DNA of 40,997 nucleotides from a virus. Each line of letters opens with the position of its first letter. Within the stretch, counting starts at the first letter, position 1. The stretch is taken from UHGV virus genome UHGV-0123923; one strand, 5' to 3'. This document shows, piece after piece, positions 12,987-26,810 of this stretch. The notes beneath the pieces were generated by a model. The model searched no databases. It saw nothing but the letters and a program-made list of their open reading frames with translations, and was not told where the DNA came from. Position numbers and translations under genes: made by a program.

Positions 12987-13053
12987 CAACGTATCGAATG
13001 GCTTTAGTTAAGAATTACTTAGAAACAATATTCTTAAGTCTCGGGTACTTAAA

Positions 13054-13073
13054 GCCCCGCCATAAAGCGGGGC
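13054..13073. other. conserved GC hairpin element, copy 1 (GCCCCGC-CATAAA-GCGGGGC)
   Basis: 7 bp perfect stem; same stem and flanks recur inverted at 24547..24566. Confidence 0.5.
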
Positions 13074-13317
13074 GCTAAATAGTACTCTTGGTAACGTTAG
13101 TATCTAAGTTTCCTCAAAGTAACAGCAAGTGGCAAGAAAGCCCCCGTCTATTTAAATTTTACCCTCCTTCATAAGCCACTGATAATTAAAAGTTTCTATA
13201 GTTGCCGTAAACGTGGAAGAGAGTACTTCACTTCGCTGGGGTGGGCTAACGCCCACCCACTGCGTTGCGTACTCTTTTAAGAAACGAAAGAATCACAACG
13301 GCAACGTAACTATTCTC

Positions 13318-16275: not shown

Positions 16276-16584
16276 TTGGATAAATTTACTGAAACAGTGA
16301 CGGGGTGGCTTCTCGCTGCCGCACTAGCCGGAGGGGTTATCGGACTACGACAACATAAGTCCGTTATTTCCGGCCCTATCGACGGCTTCTGCTTCATTGC
16401 AACTGGCTTCACTTGCGCCGTATTTGGTGCGCCTCTCGCGGCTCAATGGTTCGGTATTACCGGTGAGCGCGAGATAGCTGGCCTCGGATTCATCATCGCC
16501 ATTCTCTGGATGCCTATCTATTCCCGTCTCTCTGGTATCGTCGCCGGAGAATACATCTCACGTCGAGGAGGCCCGGATGAATGA
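16276..16584 (+). CDS. holin-like membrane protein (about three predicted TM segments)
   Basis: TTG start behind GGAGGA; hydrophobic segments; two genes upstream of the endolysin. Confidence 0.45.
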   Translation: MDKFTETVTGWLLAAALAGGVIGLRQHKSVISGPIDGFCFIATGFTCAVFGAPLAAQWFGITGEREIAGLGFIIAILWMPIYSRLSGIVAGEYISRRGGPDE

Positions 16585-16849
16585 ATTATTCTGGTTCGGC
16601 GGTATGCTGGCAATTGGGGGCACATCGCTGTTTAATGTATATCATCCCAGCGTGGACGACGGGCTATTTGGCCGGGTGCTCTATATCCTGACTGCTATAG
16701 TCTGCGCCGCCGGATGTATCCACCTGTTACAGGGCAGCATGTCACCGACGCTGCCTGAGACATTAATCACATTAGTCGCGCTGCGTCAGATTCGTCAGGC
16801 GTGGTTGTCATACGGAGGATATAAGCGTGTCTCGAAATATTTCAGATAA
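16577..16849 (+). CDS. small membrane protein (two TM; holin/antiholin partner candidate)
   Basis: overlaps neighbours; hydrophobic segments LFWFGGMLAIGGTSLF and VLYILTAIVCAAGCIHLL. Confidence 0.4.
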   Translation: MNELFWFGGMLAIGGTSLFNVYHPSVDDGLFGRVLYILTAIVCAAGCIHLLQGSMSPTLPETLITLVALRQIRQAWLSYGGYKRVSKYFR

Positions 16850-17312
16850 TGGATTGCATTTTACCGCTGCATTTGAGGGATTCCGCGGAACTGCGTATCG
16901 TGCTACGCCGAACGAGAAGTACCTGACTATTGGCTACGGGCACTACGGACCGGACGTAACCCCGGGTAAGACCATCACCCCGGGGCAAGGCCTCCTGTTA
17001 CTGAATCGCGATATGTCTAAAGCCGTAGCTGCGGTTGATGCCGCGGCGCACCATTCGCTTACACAGGCACAGTTCGATGCGGTATGTGACCTGGTGTATA
17101 ACGCAGGTGCTGGCGTGATTGCGTCTACTACGGGCACAGGCAAGGCACTGCGTTCTGGTGATACTGCAACACTGCGGGCTAAGCTGGCGCTGTTCATCAA
17201 CCAGAACGGCAAAACACTACTTGGCCTGCGTCGCCGTACCGCCGGGCGTCTGGCGCTGTTCGAAGGTAAGCCGTGGCAAGAGGCTGAGGCTATTGGGAGG
17301 GCTGTTAAATGA
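16827..17312 (+). CDS. endolysin, glycoside hydrolase family 24 lysozyme
   Basis: GTG start behind GGAGGA; motif TAAFEGFRGTAYRATPNEKYLTIGYGHYG typical of T4/lambda-R type lysozymes. Confidence 0.8.
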   Translation: MSRNISDNGLHFTAAFEGFRGTAYRATPNEKYLTIGYGHYGPDVTPGKTITPGQGLLLLNRDMSKAVAAVDAAAHHSLTQAQFDAVCDLVYNAGAGVIASTTGTGKALRSGDTATLRAKLALFINQNGKTLLGLRRRTAGRLALFEGKPWQEAEAIGRAVK

Positions 17313-22684: not shown

Positions 22685-22705
22685 AGCCCCGAAAGGGGCT
22701 TTCTT
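22685..22705 (+). terminator. hairpin/weak terminator after the portal gene
   Basis: AGCCCC-GAAA-GGGGCT followed by TTCTT. Confidence 0.45.
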
Positions 22706-22710
22706 ATAGT

Positions 22711-23787
22711 ATGCTATTAACTTTAGCGCCACAGGGTTTATCTATGAGCTTACTTACATCACTAATCAGCCACCAGATATGGCTGCAACGCACCGCATCC
22801 GGTGAGGTGAAAGACCTCGCGCCGTTCATTAAGGAGATGCGGGACGAAATCAAACGGCAGGTGCTGCTATTCAGCGACGACGGTCGCAGCACTGCGCGAC
22901 TGAATAAACTGTTACGTGACCTTGAAGAAGCACTGACAGGACTTACTGGTGACTGGCAAACAAAGCTGGCAGAAGACCTCAAGGAACTGGCGGTGTATGA
23001 AGCTGAGTGGAACGTAAAGACCCTGTCCGCCAACGTAGATGCGGAATTTGTTACGCCCACCGCCGAACAGGTGTGGGCCGCTGCTGAGTTTCAGCCATTA
23101 TCATTGAGTGGCAAGCCAGTTGATTTCACTAAACTGATGTCAGGTTGGGGTGAAACGGAAGTAGCACGTCTTGTAACCGGCGTTAAGATGGGCTTTGTAC
23201 AAGGTCAAACAACACGGCAGATTGTTAAGAATGTAGTAGGCGCCGGTGGGCTGGCTGACATCTCTGAGCGTAACGCCGCTACCGTCATCCGCACCGCGCT
23301 GTCTCACGTGTCCAACGAAGCCCGTAACGAGACGTACCGCCAGAACGACGACATCATCGAGAAGTACGAGTGGGTGTCAACGCTTGACAGCCGCACCAGT
23401 ACGATTTGCAGGGTCAGAGACGGGATGACGTGGGAAATTGGTAAGGGGCCGATGCCCCCTGCCCATCCGAACTGCCGGTCGTGCACGGCTCCGGTAATCA
23501 GTTCCGAGTTCGACTTCCTTGATAAAGGCGCAAAACGCGCGGCTAAAGGCGCGGAAGGTGGCACTCAGGTAAGCGTAGACACCACTTACTACGAGTTCCT
23601 TAAACAACAACCGGCGTGGTTTCAGGACCAGGCGCTCGGCCCGGTGCGAGGTAAGATTTTCCGTAACAGCGGTATATCGCCGGAAGAGTTTCGCGTAATA
23701 TCTGTAGATGGTTTCGGGAATCCGCTCACGCTTAAGCAGATGGCGGAACTCGATAAACGTGTTGCTGATTATCTGAAAGGGGAATAA
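22711..23787 (+). CDS. head morphogenesis / minor head protein (Mu F-like, SPP1 gp7-like)
   Basis: 358 aa downstream of the portal; no RBS at the annotated ATG, so start is uncertain. Confidence 0.55.
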   Translation: MLLTLAPQGLSMSLLTSLISHQIWLQRTASGEVKDLAPFIKEMRDEIKRQVLLFSDDGRSTARLNKLLRDLEEALTGLTGDWQTKLAEDLKELAVYEAEWNVKTLSANVDAEFVTPTAEQVWAAAEFQPLSLSGKPVDFTKLMSGWGETEVARLVTGVKMGFVQGQTTRQIVKNVVGAGGLADISERNAATVIRTALSHVSNEARNETYRQNDDIIEKYEWVSTLDSRTSTICRVRDGMTWEIGKGPMPPAHPNCRSCTAPVISSEFDFLDKGAKRAAKGAEGGTQVSVDTTYYEFLKQQPAWFQDQALGPVRGKIFRNSGISPEEFRVISVDGFGNPLTLKQMAELDKRVADYLKGE

Positions 23788-24248
23788 TGATGGGCTTTTT
23801 CAAAGTAACTGACGTACCGTCTCGTCGCGTAGTCCAGTACGCCCGCGTGTCTGGCTCTGGCGAGAACGTGGTGTTTATTGAAGACGAAAGTGTACTCGGA
23901 ACACCAGTGGACGATATGCCGTTTGCGGACAAGACCGGTATTGCGCTGCCAGCGGCAGGTATGCTTTATGAGATTCAGTACCTGGCGGATGCTGGTGATG
24001 TGTATTTCTCCGTACAACCGCAGGACGCTGAACTGGCAGACGGCAGCGCAAATATCGCTGTCGAAGTTAAGGCGGGCAAAGCACCATATGCGCTGACCTG
24101 GTACAAAGACGGGAAGGAAGTGGTAAACGCCCCGGAAGAGGCTCTGTCTCTGACGGTTAACGCAGTTGGTGAATACTTCGTTAAAGTCACTGATGCCGAC
24201 GGTATAGAGGCCGTAAGTAAAGCAGCGAAGGTTACTAAGCCAGAATAA
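23787..24248 (+). CDS. virion-associated protein with probable C-terminal Ig-like domain
   Basis: 153 aa; AAAGGGGAA RBS; motifs YALTWYKDGKEV...GEYFVKVTDADG resemble bacterial Ig-like domains. Confidence 0.4.
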   Translation: MMGFFKVTDVPSRRVVQYARVSGSGENVVFIEDESVLGTPVDDMPFADKTGIALPAAGMLYEIQYLADAGDVYFSVQPQDAELADGSANIAVEVKAGKAPYALTWYKDGKEVVNAPEEALSLTVNAVGEYFVKVTDADGIEAVSKAAKVTKPE

Positions 24249-24253
24249 ACTGA

Positions 24254-24275
24254 AGCCCCGAAAGGGGCTTTTTAG
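24254..24275 (+). terminator. intrinsic terminator
   Basis: AGCCCC-GAAA-GGGGCT followed by TTTTTAG. Confidence 0.7.
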
Positions 24276-24323
24276 TGCCTGTGATTATTCCAGTTATTCC
24301 ACTCAATTGTAAATGTTGGAATA

Positions 24324-24366
24324 AACTATTCGAATAGTTGACTTTTCACCAAAAATGTGCTAAGCT
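24324..24366 (+). promoter_or_regulatory. promoter (TTGACT-N17-TAAGCT) preceded by a perfect 16 bp palindrome AACTATTCGAATAGTT
   Basis: palindrome 24324..24339 overlaps the -35 (24338..24343); -10 at 24361..24366 preceded by TG. Confidence 0.45.
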
Positions 24367-24546
24367 CCACCTGAGCTTGTGAAGTATGAACAAGCGACCG
24401 CGGCGCGGGCAGGTAACGGAGCGGGACGTAAGTCCTGAGTGTAGTTACGCTGACGCGTTCGGAAGGGCCATACTCTATTGCTTGTGTAAAAAGTAACTTG
24501 TTTACTGAGATTACGCCGTTTCTATGTTTAAATGATAAGGACTAGC

Positions 24547-24566
24547 GCCCCGCTTTAAGGCGGGGC
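24547..24566. other. conserved GC hairpin element, copy 2 (GCCCCGC-TTTAAG-GCGGGGC), terminator-like on the + strand
   Basis: same stem and flanks as 13054..13073 in inverted orientation; followed by TTTACTT; 24 nt upstream of the Rz start. Confidence 0.5.
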
Positions 24567-24590
24567 TTTACTTATCGAGAAAGGGGAAAC

Positions 24591-24977
24591 ATGAATCTTA
24601 AAGCAACTGTCGTAGCGGGAGCATGTTTCATCATCCTGGCTTACGCACACGGCATCTACCAGTATCGCAGCGGCTGGAACGGAGGCCGGGCGAATCTCGT
24701 TTCGCAGCAACAGCAGAAAGCACAGGCTGAGTTAGCTAAGAAAACACAACGGCAGCAGCAGGATGAATCGAAGGCCGCCGCCGCTGATAACGAAGGCAAG
24801 ACGAAATCAGAGGTAATCACCCGTGAAGTCGTTAAGTACATTAAAACGCCTGGCCGCAGCGTGTGCACTTTTGACCCTGAGCGCGTGCAGCTCAAGTCCC
24901 GCGCCGTCGCAAACGCCAATTCCATCCCCGGATACGACGATGATGCAGCCGCCGTGCAAACTGGCACTGCCAAGTAA
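24591..24977 (+). CDS. i-spanin (Rz-like)
   Basis: AAAGGGGAAAC RBS; N-terminal TM segment followed by a Gln/Lys/Ala-rich helical region; overlapped by a lipoprotein gene in another frame. Confidence 0.6.
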   Translation: MNLKATVVAGACFIILAYAHGIYQYRSGWNGGRANLVSQQQQKAQAELAKKTQRQQQDESKAAAADNEGKTKSEVITREVVKYIKTPGRSVCTFDPERVQLKSRAVANANSIPGYDDDAAAVQTGTAK

Positions 24978-25086
24978 CGACGCGGACGAGGATTTAGCTA
25001 TTGACGTCCAGAACGCAGAATGTGTACGGCAACTGAGACTTAAAGTGTTCATGTTGCAGGATTACGTGAGGAATATTCTGGAATAG
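24823..25086 (+). CDS. o-spanin (Rz1-like outer-membrane lipoprotein)
   Basis: GTG start inside Rz in a different frame; lipobox LSAC after a signal-like segment, then a Pro-rich region; extends beyond the Rz stop. Confidence 0.6.
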   Translation: MKSLSTLKRLAAACALLTLSACSSSPAPSQTPIPSPDTTMMQPPCKLALPSNDADEDLAIDVQNAECVRQLRLKVFMLQDYVRNILE

Positions 25087-25165
25087 TTGCCTTGTATGTT
25101 GGAATAATTTATTCTTGACATGTAAATCCGGGTGGCCCGGATTCCAACGTCCAGGGGACATACTG

Positions 25166-25792
25166 ATGAGCGAAGAAGTGAAAGACGAAACTATCGAACA
25201 ACAAGAGACTAAGACCACGTTTACCAAAGAAGAAGTTGACGCGCTGGTATCCGGTCTTAAAGCTAACAACGAGAAGCTCTTGTCTGAAAAGAAAGCTGCT
25301 GCCGCTGCTGCGAAAGAAGCCGCAGATGCGAAGCTGAAAGCCGAACAGGAACGCGCAAAACAGAACGGCGAACTTGAGGCATTCGAGAAAACGTTGCGCA
25401 GTCAGTATGAGCCAGTACTCGCCGAGAAAGACGGTAAGATTAGCAAAATGGCTGAGCGTATCCTCGGCGCAGAACGTAAATCAGTTATCAGCCAGTTGTC
25501 TGGCATGTTGATTGATGAGAGCGCAGCGGATATTATCGCTATGATGGTCAAGACCGAATTTGACGGCGATGACGTTGTGACCAAGTTCACAGGTGCAGAT
25601 GGTAATGTCATCACCACCGACGCAGAGCAATTTAAAAAGTATCTGCGTGAGCACAAAGCATTTTCGCATCTGATTAAAGCAGATGCAGCAACCGGCGGCG
25701 GGGCTTCCGGTAACAAAAATTCTACTGGCGGGGCCGGTGGTGCGGACGTAATCCAGCAAAAACTTAACGCCAAATACGGCAAACGAGGATAA
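25166..25792 (+). CDS. scaffolding protein
   Basis: start moved to ATG (MSEEVKDET) behind AGGGGA; helical, charged, Ala/Lys/Glu-rich; immediately upstream of the major capsid gene. Confidence 0.6.
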   Translation: MSEEVKDETIEQQETKTTFTKEEVDALVSGLKANNEKLLSEKKAAAAAAKEAADAKLKAEQERAKQNGELEAFEKTLRSQYEPVLAEKDGKISKMAERILGAERKSVISQLSGMLIDESAADIIAMMVKTEFDGDDVVTKFTGADGNVITTDAEQFKKYLREHKAFSHLIKADAATGGGASGNKNSTGGAGGADVIQQKLNAKYGKRG

Positions 25793-25798
25793 CAGAAT

Positions 25799-26767
25799 AT
25801 GTCTCTGTCAGATATGAAGGTTTATAACGACGATATCGTCGGTACCACTATCGAACTGCTTGGCCAGAAAACTGACCAGTTTAACGCAGCCTCCGGTGGC
25901 GCAATTGTACTGTCTACCGCTTCATGGCGCGGTGACTTCTCCCGTGAGTCTTTCTTTAACCAGATTGCCTCCGCTAAACGCCGCGTTGACCGTTACGCCG
26001 CTATCGCGTCTCAGGCAGCTACCGCGCTGACTCAGGGCGAGCGTGTAGGCGTTAAAGTCGCTGGCGGCTTCGGACCGGTACTGTTCGAGCCTGCGCAAAT
26101 GACCTGGCTGAACGAAGACCCGGCGAGCGCGATTCGTGCTATCTCCGAAGGGTTCTCTGACGCACTGTTAGCTGACCAGCTTAACACCGCTGTTGGTGCC
26201 GCCGTTGCCGCGGTATCAGGTCAGGCTGCACTGGTTAACGATGTATCCGCGACCGCTGGCTTGTCCCTGAACGTGCTGAACAACAGCCACGCTAAATTCG
26301 GCGACCAGTCTCAGTTGTTGGTCACTGACATCATGACCGGCGCGGCATACCACACTCTGGTGGACAAAGCGCTGACCAACGCAAACCAGTTGTTCGTTGC
26401 TGGCAACGTTATGGTTGTCGATGTTCTCGGCAAGCGTTACGTAATTTCCGACATCCCTGCGCTGTACGAAGCTGGCACCCCGAACAAGACTAAGGTTCTG
26501 TCCGTAGTTGCGAACGGCATCATCGTTGATAATGCTTCTGATATTATCAGCAACATTGACACCAGCAACGGTAACACCCGCATCCAGACCACCTGGCAGG
26601 CGGACTACAGCTTCGGCCTGAAACTGAAAGGCTACAGCTGGGACGTTACCAACGGCGGTAAATCTCCGCTGGACGCAGAACTGTTCACCGCGACTAACTG
26701 GGACAAAGCTGTTGCCGAGAACAAGCACACCCTCGGTACTCTGGCAATCGCCGACGCAGACCTGTAA
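25799..26767 (+). CDS. major capsid protein
   Basis: 322 aa after the scaffold; GAGGATAA RBS; strong terminator immediately downstream. Confidence 0.75.
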   Translation: MSLSDMKVYNDDIVGTTIELLGQKTDQFNAASGGAIVLSTASWRGDFSRESFFNQIASAKRRVDRYAAIASQAATALTQGERVGVKVAGGFGPVLFEPAQMTWLNEDPASAIRAISEGFSDALLADQLNTAVGAAVAAVSGQAALVNDVSATAGLSLNVLNNSHAKFGDQSQLLVTDIMTGAAYHTLVDKALTNANQLFVAGNVMVVDVLGKRYVISDIPALYEAGTPNKTKVLSVVANGIIVDNASDIISNIDTSNGNTRIQTTWQADYSFGLKLKGYSWDVTNGGKSPLDAELFTATNWDKAVAENKHTLGTLAIADADL

Positions 26768-26789: not shown

Positions 26790-26810
26790 GGGGCTTCGGC
26801 CCCTTTTTAC
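26790..26810 (+). terminator. intrinsic terminator after the major capsid gene
   Basis: GGGGC-TTCG-GCCCC followed by TTTTTAC. Confidence 0.7.

Follow-up and report, generated by a model that had tools for sequence, protein, structure and literature searches.

Spanins accumulate harmlessly and act only once the endolysin has removed the cell wall, and it is the holin that sets the timing of lysis. In phage lambda, the late leader comprises the promoter pR', the 194-nt 6S RNA, and tR', which stands before S, R, and Rz and then the head genes. The closest described relatives of the spanins considered here form the 'Jersey' family of overlapped spanins, in which the spanin census (Kongari 2018, PMC6139136) lists K1H and, among further members, Jersey, SETP3, K1G, K1ind1-3, HK578, and EP23. 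Both spanin genes are annotated in the RefSeq record of K1H, and spanins are annotated at the corresponding place in Oekolampad, Shemara, phiEap-2, and AH01. That the lysis genes can be split has already been stated in the fBC-Eco01 paper and in the Golestan paper. Our literature search found no experiments on outer-membrane disruption by 'Jersey' family spanins. The locus described here lies in a viral genome of 40,997 nt (UHGV-0123923; this whole stretch of DNA is referred to as the window), and the source phage is a K1H-like Kagunavirus. An earlier sequence-only reading of the window had pointed to a spanin pair placed inside the head module; the observation is confirmed, and its interpretation is partly supported.

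Results

The spanin pair

The pair is a genuine overlapped Rz/Rz1 two-component spanin that has already been catalogued, and it is encoded as follows.

24591..24977, + strand: Rz, the i-spanin ('Jersey' family), ATG start, 128 aa
24823..25086, + strand: Rz1, the o-spanin precursor, GTG start, 87 aa, +1 frame

Rz is 100% identical to the K1H product, an Rz-like spanin in the RefSeq annotation, so that the comparison with a curated spanin set, which had been proposed as a check, leads directly to K1H, listed as 'Jersey, overlapped' in the census (PMC6139136). The i-spanin with a transmembrane segment and a helical region that had been read from the letters was borne out, with a match to phrog_2536 at 1e-56, a sole hydrophobic segment at residues 3-23 (Kyte-Doolittle 1.94, as judged on the hydropathy scale), and a high helix propensity at residues 39-70 (as judged on a propensity scale). 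Its periplasmic domain is rich in Gln, Ala, Lys, and Glu, Cys92 is invariant among 10 diverse sequences, and a ribosome-binding site, GGGG, lies at 24583-24586. Searches of Pfam (E <= 0.01) and NCBIfam returned no family for Rz.

The GTG codon of Rz1 has GAGG 9 nt upstream, and some relatives carry ATG instead of GTG at the same start position. In several GenBank records, the o-spanin is annotated in a truncated form of 48 aa without the lipobox. The signal peptide of Rz1 consists of the n-region MKSLSTLKR, a hydrophobic core, and the lipobox LSAC with Cys22, and the +2 residue is Ser and not Asp, the criterion for outer-membrane sorting. The mature protein of 66 aa has 28% Pro within its first 25 residues and contains Cys45 and Cys67, both kept in the relatives' sequences compared. 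Its C terminus is strongly conserved, reading VRNILE here, with V/I and L/M varying among relatives. Rz1 matches phrog_5672 at 7e-30 and phrog_1267 at 6e-20, both described as 'Rz-like spanin'; no Pfam family was found (E <= 0.01), and the sole NCBIfam match, LppU, is far below its cut-off. The lipobox, the Pro-rich region, and the +1 frame of the o-spanin thus stand as they had been proposed, but the term 'embedded' does not, because Rz1 overlaps Rz by 155 nt and extends 109 nt beyond the Rz stop, which makes the architecture 'overlapped'.

Related loci were collected, 48 in total, and a second, protein-guided scan of viral contigs with the Rz alignment returned essentially the same 48. All of them (48/48) have the lipobox and the signal peptide, the former as LSAC, LASC, LSGC, LNGC, or ITGC. 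Among 45 distinct related sequences, variability in the part encoding only Rz is highest at Rz codon position 3 (0.66 bits), in the part encoding only Rz1 it is highest at Rz1 codon position 3 (0.64 bits), and in the overlap it is raised at both third codon positions. Both frames are under purifying selection, and this frame-specific constraint on codon positions shows that Rz1 is not a chance ORF.

Genomic context of the lysis genes

The other lysis genes of the window are the following.

16276..16584, + strand: holin 1 (phrog_2359 at 3.5e-29; K1H annotation concurs)
16577..16849, + strand: holin 2 (phrog_2508 at 5e-33; K1H annotation concurs)
16827..17312, + strand: endolysin, lysozyme-type (Pfam Phage_lysozyme at 3.4e-27; K1H annotation concurs)

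Neither holin has a family in Pfam or NCBIfam. The placement of the holins and the endolysin at 16276..17312, about 7 kb from the spanins, was correct, the PHROG and Pfam matches agreeing with it and the distance from the end of the endolysin gene to the start of Rz being 7279 nt (~7.3 kb), with the holins and the endolysin upstream of the pair. The spanin genes were also rightly placed between a head/Ig-like gene and the scaffold gene; their neighbors are a Hoc-like decoration gene (23787..24248) upstream and the scaffold gene (ATG at 25166) downstream. The order HeadMorph, Hoc, Rz, Rz1, Scaffold is found in all 46 of the related loci that extend upstream far enough for gene order to be read, and a relative of Rz is present in 663 phage records. 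In several relatives, an opposite-strand gene lies immediately upstream of the pair (phiSD1, GRNsp27, fBC-Eco01, Shemara, and AH01) or after Rz1 (Shemara, SE1, AH01, and Oekolampad). Spanins within the head module are the rule in Guernseyvirinae and are seen also in Dhillonvirus, and the layout is ordinary. The split lysis cassette had been called unusual; this does not hold for an arrangement that is already annotated and published. In Kagunavirus, Jerseyvirus, Cornellvirus, and Dhillonvirus, a large phage group in therapeutic use, the lysis genes normally lie partly at the early-late junction and partly in the head module.

Terminator, promoter, and repeat arrays

Around the spanin genes, the following elements were recognized.

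24253..24273, + strand: intrinsic terminator after the Hoc-like gene, with an AAGCCCC/GGGGCTT stem, a GAAA loop, and a T run
24283..24337, no strand assigned: left array of GGAATAA / TTATTCC half-sites, with the palindromes GAATAAACTATTC (24319-24331) and TATTCGAATA
24338..24366, + strand: promoter-like site, extended -10 sigma-70 type, with TTGACT, a 17-nt spacer, and TG-c-TAAGCT
25070..25114, no strand assigned: right array of GGAATA / TATTC half-sites, with GGAATATTCTGGAATAG over the last Rz1 codons, then GGAATAATTTATTC
25115..25165, + strand: pre-scaffold segment, with TTGACA without a recognizable -10, a hairpin, and the scaffold ribosome-binding site

The sequence-only reading had bracketed the pair by a terminator (24254..24275) and a promoter of its own (24338..24366). 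Both sites are present, but the promoter-like one does not stand directly before the genes, since a structured leader of ~200 nt and a terminator-like hairpin lie between. The terminator after the Hoc-like gene, with its stem at 24253-24259/24264-24270, is listed on the minus strand by the terminator scan; it is palindromic and could therefore act on both strands, and the fBC-Eco01 record annotates a terminator on both strands at the equivalent place. Its terminator discriminant is d = 23.6. In the promoter-like site, the -35 element matches at 5/6 positions and the -10 element TAAGCT at 3/6, with T-12, A-11, and T-7 kept; because of this low -10 match, the site falls below the threshold of the consensus scan and is not listed by it. 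Transcription is predicted to start near 24373. TTGACT is present in all aligned Kaguna-type loci except two (L014 and L023) and TGnTAAGCT in all of them, with a variable spacer, and the Jersey-type loci have TAGACT..TGtTACGCT at this position. A 'host promoter' is annotated at the matching site in the fBC-Eco01 record. The opposite-strand genes found directly upstream in several relatives, and in some also downstream, mean that the spanin genes require their own promoter there.

The left array is presumed to be an operator for a DNA-binding protein. The motif TGGAATAA occurs six times in the window against 1.1 expected, four of the six being in the left array or at 25100, and the window has just two copies of GAATA-N3-TATTC, for which 0.06 would be expected. 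The left array is conserved in both main clades, with a variant form in TS33, GRNsp27, and phiEap-2. The right array, which in part repeats the left one (24313-24344), is kept in every clade, TS33 and GRNsp27 among them. The hairpin of the pre-scaffold segment (25125-25144, AAUCCGGG-UGGC-CCCGGAUU) is conserved as well, and changes on both sides keep its pairing in Jersey-type loci (CACCGGG..CCCGGUG) and in TS33.

The leader and its terminal hairpin

The ~200 nt that separate the promoter (24338..24366) from the start codon of Rz are non-coding and had no place in the sequence-only reading. They apparently specify a structured RNA without previous description, with the following parts.

24373..24477, + strand: leader core of four helices, P1-P4, ending in the invariant single-stranded GGAAGGGCC
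24375-79/24391-95, + strand: P1, leader core helix
24398-400 and 24402-07/24454-62, + strand: P2, leader core helix
24410-17/24444-48 and 24450-52, + strand: P3, leader core helix
24422-27/24432-37, + strand: P4, leader core helix with the loop GUAA
24478..24546, + strand: leader 3' half, with the conserved blocks UAUUGCUU, AGAUUACGCCGU, and AUGUUUA and a small hairpin GUAAC..GUUUAC (single-sequence fold)
24534..24576, + strand: long hairpin 5' of the Rz ribosome-binding site, with an inner stem at 24547-24566 and an outer helix GAUAAG/CUUAUC

In 19 Kaguna-type sequences, 97.2% of the cells of the leader core are paired, and four pairs show compensatory changes. In an alignment of 28 sequences that was fitted to the model, paired cells amount to 96.8%, as against 26-38% in slid controls, and compensatory changes are found in 13/28 pairs. 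The covariation in these alignments comes from few independent lineages. Jersey-type leaders folded independently gave the same architecture, and the conserved G-U pairs are consistent with a + strand RNA. The leader has a mean identity of ~98% against 88-92% for the adjoining genes (97.7% among 36 loci for its 3' half) and is, for example, still 97-99% identical in a locus where nucleotide identity of the Rz gene has fallen to 73%. It is present at >=95% identity in 179/187 phage records, occurs once per record (counting matches to >=80% of the query), and was never found away from Rz. No match was obtained in 5,426 complete E. coli genomes, so that at sequence level the leader is neither a host mimic nor prophage-borne.

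A search of the whole window against Rfam 15 gave nothing at gathering thresholds, and the best matches of a permissive search of 24250-24620, at E = 0.9-10, were not plausible. With ARAGORN, neither a tRNA nor a tmRNA was detected. Other Guernseyvirinae have different, equally hairpin-rich leaders 5' of Rz. A covariance model of the Kaguna-type leader (R1) did not detect the leaders of TS33, GRNsp27, and Oekolampad even with filters off, and the homology of all leader types is therefore argued only from position and a short shared motif. A loose DNA pattern of the leader run over viral contigs gave mostly chance matches, and none of the contigs it returned from outside Guernseyvirinae scored with this model. 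A small protein ORF at 24386..24496 was rejected, its ATG being absent in the Jersey clade and several loci having 1-nt indels, and so was a pairing of the leader with the Rz ribosome-binding site (anti-Shine-Dalgarno, sought by eye), the candidate segment not being conserved in the Jersey clade. We found no published RNA element in these genera in the literature, and the K1B4 transcriptome paper makes no mention of spanins or intergenic transcripts. Several GenBank records call a spurious small protein within the leader.

The inner stem of the terminal hairpin (24547-24566) has eight pairs, seven of them G-C, at -15.8 kcal/mol and is followed by the weak tail UUUACUUAU. It is listed by the terminator scan and has d = 14.0, against 23.6 for the terminator of the Hoc-like gene and 19.8 for that of the capsid gene, and a terminator is annotated at this hairpin in the fBC-Eco01 record. 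The outer helix becomes UAUACG/CGUAUA in Jersey-type loci. The U tract is not conserved, the tail being UUAGCGUAU in Jersey-type loci (d -3 to -17) and UGUUACGAG in the Cornell type (d -39), and only in this lineage does the hairpin resemble a terminator, one of moderate strength. On the minus strand, at 13050-13077, the hairpin (28 nt) occurs a second time. The second place of the leader was considered as a second RNA gene and rejected, because in the window it consists only of this 28-nt hairpin copy; the extra places of the leader in other genomes are most likely the repeated hairpin too.

Discussion

Our analyses lead with high confidence to the reading of the locus as a whole, namely a two-component spanin of the overlapped 'Jersey' family in a K1H-like Kagunavirus that is expressed via a structured leader. 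In the proposed mechanism, the extended -10 promoter (24338-24366) would start a transcript near 24373, whose first ~200 nt would form the four-helix leader, ending in the long hairpin, which stands ~15 nt 5' of the ribosome-binding site of Rz; start, 3' end, and read-through of this transcript are all deduced from the sequence. The terminal hairpin probably stops a part of the transcripts, a partial stop being expected because the U tract is weak in this lineage, and the remainder would continue into Rz/Rz1 and perhaps into the scaffold and capsid genes. By reference to lambda Rz/Rz1, the inner membrane would anchor Rz and the outer membrane the lipoylated Rz1, with the periplasmic ends of the two proteins joined, and once the holins and the endolysin have destroyed the cell wall, the complex would fuse or disrupt the outer membrane. 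As spanins act only after the loss of the cell wall, the position and the transcription of their genes do not set the timing of lysis. Because the last hairpin has no U tract in other lineages, the conserved property is a structured 5' untranslated region and not termination. Dhillonvirus expresses homologous spanins from a locus that has no leader, which indicates that spanins as such can function without one. Our working guess is that the leader sets the level or the stability of the spanin message. We tentatively propose, as a possibility that falls somewhat short of an even chance, that it represents a new cis-regulatory RNA family of the Guernseyvirinae spanin unit, with at least four exchangeable types, setting the spanin message and possibly the downstream late message. 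Attenuation at the terminal hairpin, processing or stabilization, and binding of a phage or host factor may all be candidate mechanisms. The leader could offer a way into the dosing or regulation of late and lysis functions by these phages.

Among the alternatives, the one that survives best, although we consider it unlikely, is that the unit from promoter to hairpin (~24373..24572) constitutes an independent small RNA gene, which would have its own terminator and a role unrelated to lysis, the spanins being made only from minority read-through or from upstream late transcripts. The unit does begin with a promoter and a 5' hairpin, contains single-stranded blocks that are conserved, and has a GC-rich hairpin that scores positively as a terminator, yet in Jersey- and Cornell-type loci this last hairpin lacks the U tract (d = -3 to -39) while the element as a whole keeps its place and its distance to the start of Rz. 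The recurrence of the same hairpin at 13050-13077 and a conservation far better than that of the adjacent Rz, suggesting separate constraints, would suit such a gene; on the other hand, the element was never found away from Rz and is absent from E. coli genomes, and in genomes with opposite-strand genes upstream, spanin message has no evident source other than this promoter.

The sequence-only reading had concluded that split spanins with their own promoter serve expression at a different time. This conclusion does not follow, given that the holin sets the timing and that the T4 lysis genes are also split, and we regard it as improbable. A separate conserved promoter and operator-like repeats make separate regulation possible, but established lysis models need no timing of the spanins' own, lysozyme and head genes belong to one temporal class in the only transcriptome of a relative (K1B4; weak evidence), and the pair of Dhillonvirus, which overlaps the end of the minor capsid gene, does without a promoter of its own.

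It is still less probable that the leader would be a cis-acting antitermination device resembling the lambda late leader or the HK022 put RNA, which would carry polymerase past the hairpin at 24547 and the terminators beyond it, and on into the scaffold, capsid, and tail genes. No antiterminator (Q-like) is named among the 50 annotated K1H products, and nothing of this RNA type was found in Rfam, although the order of promoter, structured RNA of ~200 nt, terminator, lysis gene, and head genes would be as expected for it. Within the late region, the portal and capsid genes are each followed by a real-looking terminator (22685-22700 and 26790-26803), so that read-through is needed somewhere; however, in Shemara, SE1, AH01, and Oekolampad the opposite-strand gene after Rz1 means that the unit cannot feed the head genes. 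That the ORFs are not spanins at all, the +1 ORF having arisen by chance and the first ORF encoding a membrane-anchored head-assembly factor, is scarcely credible, as it has in its favor only the position among head genes, the lack of a Pfam or NCBIfam family for Rz, and the one NCBIfam match of Rz1 far below cut-off, against purifying selection in the +1 frame, a signal peptide and lipobox kept through sequence change in 48 loci, matches to PHROG spanin families, and the presence of the family in the curated census (PMC6139136).

Together, these data place the preferred reading, a 'Jersey' family spanin pair expressed via a structured leader, among known systems as follows. The lambda late leader and the HK022 put RNA are alike in having a promoter, a short structured transcript, and a terminator before lysis and head genes; they differ in that no sequence or Rfam similarity was found and in that the terminator property is not conserved across the subfamily. 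Like lambda Rz/Rz1, the present pair combines a type II protein of the inner membrane with a lipoprotein of the outer membrane that the same DNA encodes in the +1 frame, and in both systems the mature o-spanin is rich in Pro and periplasmic cysteines are present. Lambda Rz1, however, is an entirely embedded gene, and both lambda genes stand behind S and R in a single cassette, whereas in the present genome Rz1 extends 109 nt past the end of Rz and 7.3 kb separate the pair from the holin and endolysin genes. According to the census (PMC6139136), the T4 spanins pseT.3/pseT.2 likewise do not adjoin the holin (t) or the endolysin (e), which makes a split lysis gene set an accepted arrangement. The T4 genes are, however, 'separated' and not overlapped, belong to another family, and do not lie within a head module. 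In Dhillonvirus (Oekolampad bas18_0005/0006), the i-spanin is distantly homologous, with 41-57% identity over part of the protein, and the pair likewise stands among the head genes, immediately behind the minor capsid (Mu F-like) gene; there, however, no intergenic leader exists, the i-spanin gene beginning before the minor capsid gene has ended, and an opposite-strand gene follows. With the 'Jersey' family the proteins are the same, the overlapped architecture, the lipobox, and the periplasmic cysteines agreeing with no protein difference, and no discussion of the genomic position or of a leader was found in the available parts of the census (PMC6139136). For the spanins themselves, little changes and the existing annotation is confirmed; the part of the locus worth following up in comparison with these systems is the leader, which keeps ~98% identity while its neighbors drift to 73-90%.

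The spanin pair and its position in the genome

The sequence-only reading was right to identify an overlapped Rz/Rz1 pair here; the pair is genuine, had been described before, and has the layout that is normal for these phages. Both open reading frames are present as described, with PHROG spanin matches, a lipobox and constraint in both frames, and the window Rz is identical to a product encoded on a 41,632-bp K1H contig. A 2.2-kb query around the pair matches Kagunavirus genomes end to end (LF7074P1, 99.6%; K1H, ~97%), and the gene order is that of RefSeq K1H, i.e. terminase, portal, head morphogenesis (Mu F-like), Hoc-like decoration, two "Rz-like spanin" genes, scaffold, and major head protein. 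In their spanin census, Kongari et al. (PMC6139136) class a "Jersey" family, whose 27 phages include K1G, K1H, and K1ind1-3, as "overlapped" for both i- and o-spanin.

Genes of the spanin region and the remaining lysis genes
16276..17312, two holins (phrog_2359, phrog_2508) and a Phage_lysozyme endolysin, by profile matches
22711..23787, head morphogenesis gene
23787..24248, Hoc-like decoration gene
24591..24977, + strand, Rz i-spanin, 128 aa (phrog_2536 "Rz-like spanin", 1e-56)
24823..25086, + strand, Rz1 o-spanin, 87 aa (phrog_5672, 7e-30; phrog_1267, 6e-20)
25166 (ATG) to 25792, scaffold gene
25799..26767, major capsid gene

Rz has a single hydrophobic stretch (residues 3-23) and, after it, a Q/A/K/E-rich region of high helix propensity; it also carries Cys92. 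Rz1 starts at a GTG with GAGG nine bases upstream (ATG in some relatives) and has a basic n-region, the lipobox LSAC with Cys22 and Ser at +2, and a mature part with 28% proline over its first 25 residues and two more cysteines. The architecture is overlapped rather than embedded, because 155 nt are common to both frames and Rz1 runs 109 nt past the Rz stop. Selection was assessed on 48 related loci, of which 45 distinct sequences were aligned. Variability per Rz codon position was 0.32/0.25/0.66 bits in the Rz-only part and, in the same numbering, 0.64/0.21/0.09 bits in the Rz1-only part, so that the peak there falls on the Rz1 third position, and in the overlap the third positions of both frames were raised. 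The signal peptide and lipobox are kept in all 48 loci despite changed letters (LSAC, LASC, LSGC, LNGC, ITGC), and this persistence, together with the frame-specific constraint, rules out Rz1 as a chance open reading frame. The subfamily is not uniform in spanin architecture: Rz has 118-119 aa and the genes overlap by 8-14 nt only in Cornell-type phages (L225, 819-1410) and the recombinant locus L038 (3001-3589), as against 155 nt in the window. Several GenBank records call a truncated 48-aa o-spanin (L002, 3312-3458; L223, 1473-1619; L226, 1170-1316) that begins at an internal Met, without signal peptide and lipobox, and phrog_5672 (47 positions) seems to have been built on such calls.

The holins and endolysin lie 7279 nt upstream of Rz, which confirms the separation that the sequence-only reading had reported, but its description of this layout as unusual is contradicted by the relatives. 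The order Hoc-like, Rz, Rz1, scaffold was found in 46/46 loci extending far enough upstream, and the head morphogenesis gene precedes Hoc in all 45 reaching that far. In a protein search, Rz relatives occurred in 663 phage records, mostly of Salmonella and Escherichia phages, with others from Klebsiella, Serratia, Hafnia, Pantoea, and Dhillonvirus. The Golestan paper lists holins as ORF66/67, endolysin as ORF68, and spanins as ORF7/8, and i- and o-spanins have been called at the equivalent place in Shemara (Cornellvirus; Center for Phage Technology) and Oekolampad (Dhillonvirus; BASEL). Because the i-spanin start of Oekolampad overlaps the end of a minor capsid gene, the head-module position appears to be older than the divergence of these groups. 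The same census (PMC6139136) also describes spanins unlinked to holin and endolysin in T4, the textbook example.

For the scaffold, ATG 25166, the start annotated in phiSD1, is probably the correct one; RefSeq K1H uses TTG 25115 instead, which falls within the non-coding element 25115-25168. The scaffold start is also the site of a mosaic joint, the match to the window ending at ~25166 in most Kagunaviruses. Between window 25166-26767 and L014 3579-5329, for example, the scaffolds are 67% identical and the K1ind1-type capsid is 27% identical over 196 aa.

Promoter and structured leader

Non-coding features around the spanin genes
24283-24337 and 25070-25114, GGAATAA/TTATTCC half-site arrays
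24338..24366, + strand, promoter-like site (TTGACT, 17-nt spacer, TG-c-TAAGCT)
24547..24566, + strand, terminal hairpin of the leader, 8 pairs (7 G-C), followed by UUUACUUAU; terminator-like in the scan

The terminator placed ahead of the pair, after the Hoc-like gene, is convincing (stem AAGCCCC/GGGGCTT, loop GAAA, five T). The promoter agrees with the -10 consensus at only 3/6 positions and was for this reason not listed by the consensus scan; in fBC-Eco01, the GenBank record places a host promoter at its exact equivalent. TGnTAAGCT is present in every aligned Kaguna-type locus and TTGACT in all but L014 and L023, whereas spacer positions vary. The equivalent place holds TAGACT..TGtTACGCT in the Jersey clade, TGaTAACCT in GRNsp27, phiEap-2, and TS33, and a TATAAT in Shemara-type phages. 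Opposite-strand genes lie directly upstream in phiSD1, fBC-Eco01, GRNsp27, Shemara, and AH01, and another follows Rz1 in Shemara, SE1, AH01, and Oekolampad, so the spanins of these relatives must have their own promoter. The proposal of an independent spanin promoter thus stands, although the rarity and separate timing attached to it do not. The interval 24249-24282, which separates the Hoc-like terminator from the half-site array, is a hot spot for insertions (L005, L010, L033, L002, L223); the Hoc-Rz gap spans 317-1117 nt among relatives with an identified Hoc stop, and the inserts, sometimes with small opposite-strand ORFs, are always upstream of TTATTCCAGTTATTCC.

The promoter does not adjoin Rz, and the ~200 nt between them, overlooked by the sequence-only reading, behave like a functional RNA as judged from conservation and pairing. 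Across 36 loci of the window's type, mean identity was 98.2% for the leader core (24373..24477) and 97.7% for the 3' half, with 88.0% for the Hoc-like gene and 92.2% for Rz. In the related locus L049, the leader is 97-99% identical versus 73% for the Rz gene (nucleotides), and 179 of the 187 phage records holding the leader keep it at ≥95% identity. Some GenBank records annotate 24367-24579 as "hypothetical protein". An ORF at 24386..24496 (36 codons) was rejected as coding, its ATG being absent in the Jersey clade and single-base indels occurring in L005, L014, L022, and L027.

The leader folds into four helices, P1, P2 (bulged C), P3, and P4 (GUAA cap). In 19 Kaguna-type leaders, 97.2% of cells are paired and four pairs are changed on both sides. 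A covariance-model alignment of 28 leaders from both clades gave 96.8% paired cells versus 26-38% with partners slid, and 13/28 pairs with compensatory change; this alignment is biased towards the model. As a check independent of that fit, seven Jersey-type leaders folded alone gave the same P1-P4 layout with other letters in P1, P3, and P4. Conserved G-U pairs change to G-C, which fits a + strand RNA. No Rfam family matched the leader, no tRNA or tmRNA was found, and the searchable literature yielded no description of it. This conserved structured RNA is the only part of the region that might repay experiments.

The fBC-Eco01 record annotates a terminator at the equivalent of 24535..24577 and more after the Hoc-like gene. 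By the d'Aubenton-Carafa discriminant d, the terminal hairpin (14.0) ranks below the terminators that follow the Hoc-like gene (23.6) and the capsid gene (19.8). An outer helix (GAUAAG/CUUAUC; UAUACG/CGUAUA in the Jersey clade) lengthens the hairpin. Jersey-type and Cornell-type terminal hairpins have no U tract and a negative d, so that what is conserved is not termination but a long hairpin ~15-25 nt upstream of the Rz start. The 28-nt terminal hairpin recurs once, nearly identical, at 13050..13077 on the minus strand (TAGCGCCCCGCTTTATGGCGGGGCTTTA).

Distant relatives have other leaders of similar length, dense in small hairpins, in which a common 3' domain recombines with differing 5' domains. 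Compensatory changes were seen by eye (GUGCC-UCCG-GGCAC versus UUGCC-UACG-GGCAA), and all leader types share (U/A)AGCG(A/U) after a tetraloop hairpin. R1, the covariance model of the Kaguna-type leader, detected none of the distant leaders, and common descent of all types is therefore something that we infer.

Flanking motifs

The palindrome GAATA-N3-TATTC has two sites only in 41 kb (24319 and 25102), each just before a TTGAC and together flanking the promoter-leader-Rz-Rz1 block. GGAATA/TATTCC half-sites surround both, and some of these fall within the final codons of Rz1; in part, the two arrays repeat each other directly, with the order swapped. The right-hand array is conserved in all clades, as is a hairpin at 25125-25144 before the scaffold ribosome-binding site, with pairing kept via two-sided changes. 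The related palindrome AATAGT-N4-CTATT, which equals the published PHIRE "phage promoter" consensus of fBC-Eco01, has seven sites (3802, 7209, 9615, 9659, 13334, 14628, 33011) where 0.33 are expected, plus a variant at 24320; at least two (7209, 9615) lie in the spacer of TTGACA..TATAGT-type promoters, and three continue as TATTATATTGGGGTGYGCAAG. We read these motifs as putative operators of a phage regulator; the arrays may be either operators or scars or boundaries of module insertion. Terminator-like hairpins also occur inside the late region (22685-22700, after portal; 26790-26808, after major capsid), so read-through or antitermination is needed somewhere in the morphogenesis operon.

Expression and function of the unit

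The unit is most likely expressed from the conserved promoter, with transcription proceeding through the structured leader, and in this lineage transcripts would probably be stopped in part at the terminal hairpin. The leader could instead act in antitermination, in the manner of the lambda 6S leader or HK022 put RNA; opposite-strand genes after Rz1 in several relatives argue against this, and no antiterminator is annotated among the K1H products. A free-standing small RNA is a further possibility, disfavoured by the non-conserved U tract and by the element never being found away from Rz. One transcriptome of a relative, which is weak evidence, places lysozyme, Mu F-like protein, and capsid in the same class. 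Spanins wait passively for holins and endolysin to remove the cell wall, so that gene position and transcription do not set the time of lysis, and the separate timing proposed for the promoter-driven pair is unsupported. By analogy, the two window proteins most likely form a standard spanin working as lambda Rz/Rz1 does, with an inner-membrane Rz and a lipoylated outer-membrane Rz1 joined across the periplasm.
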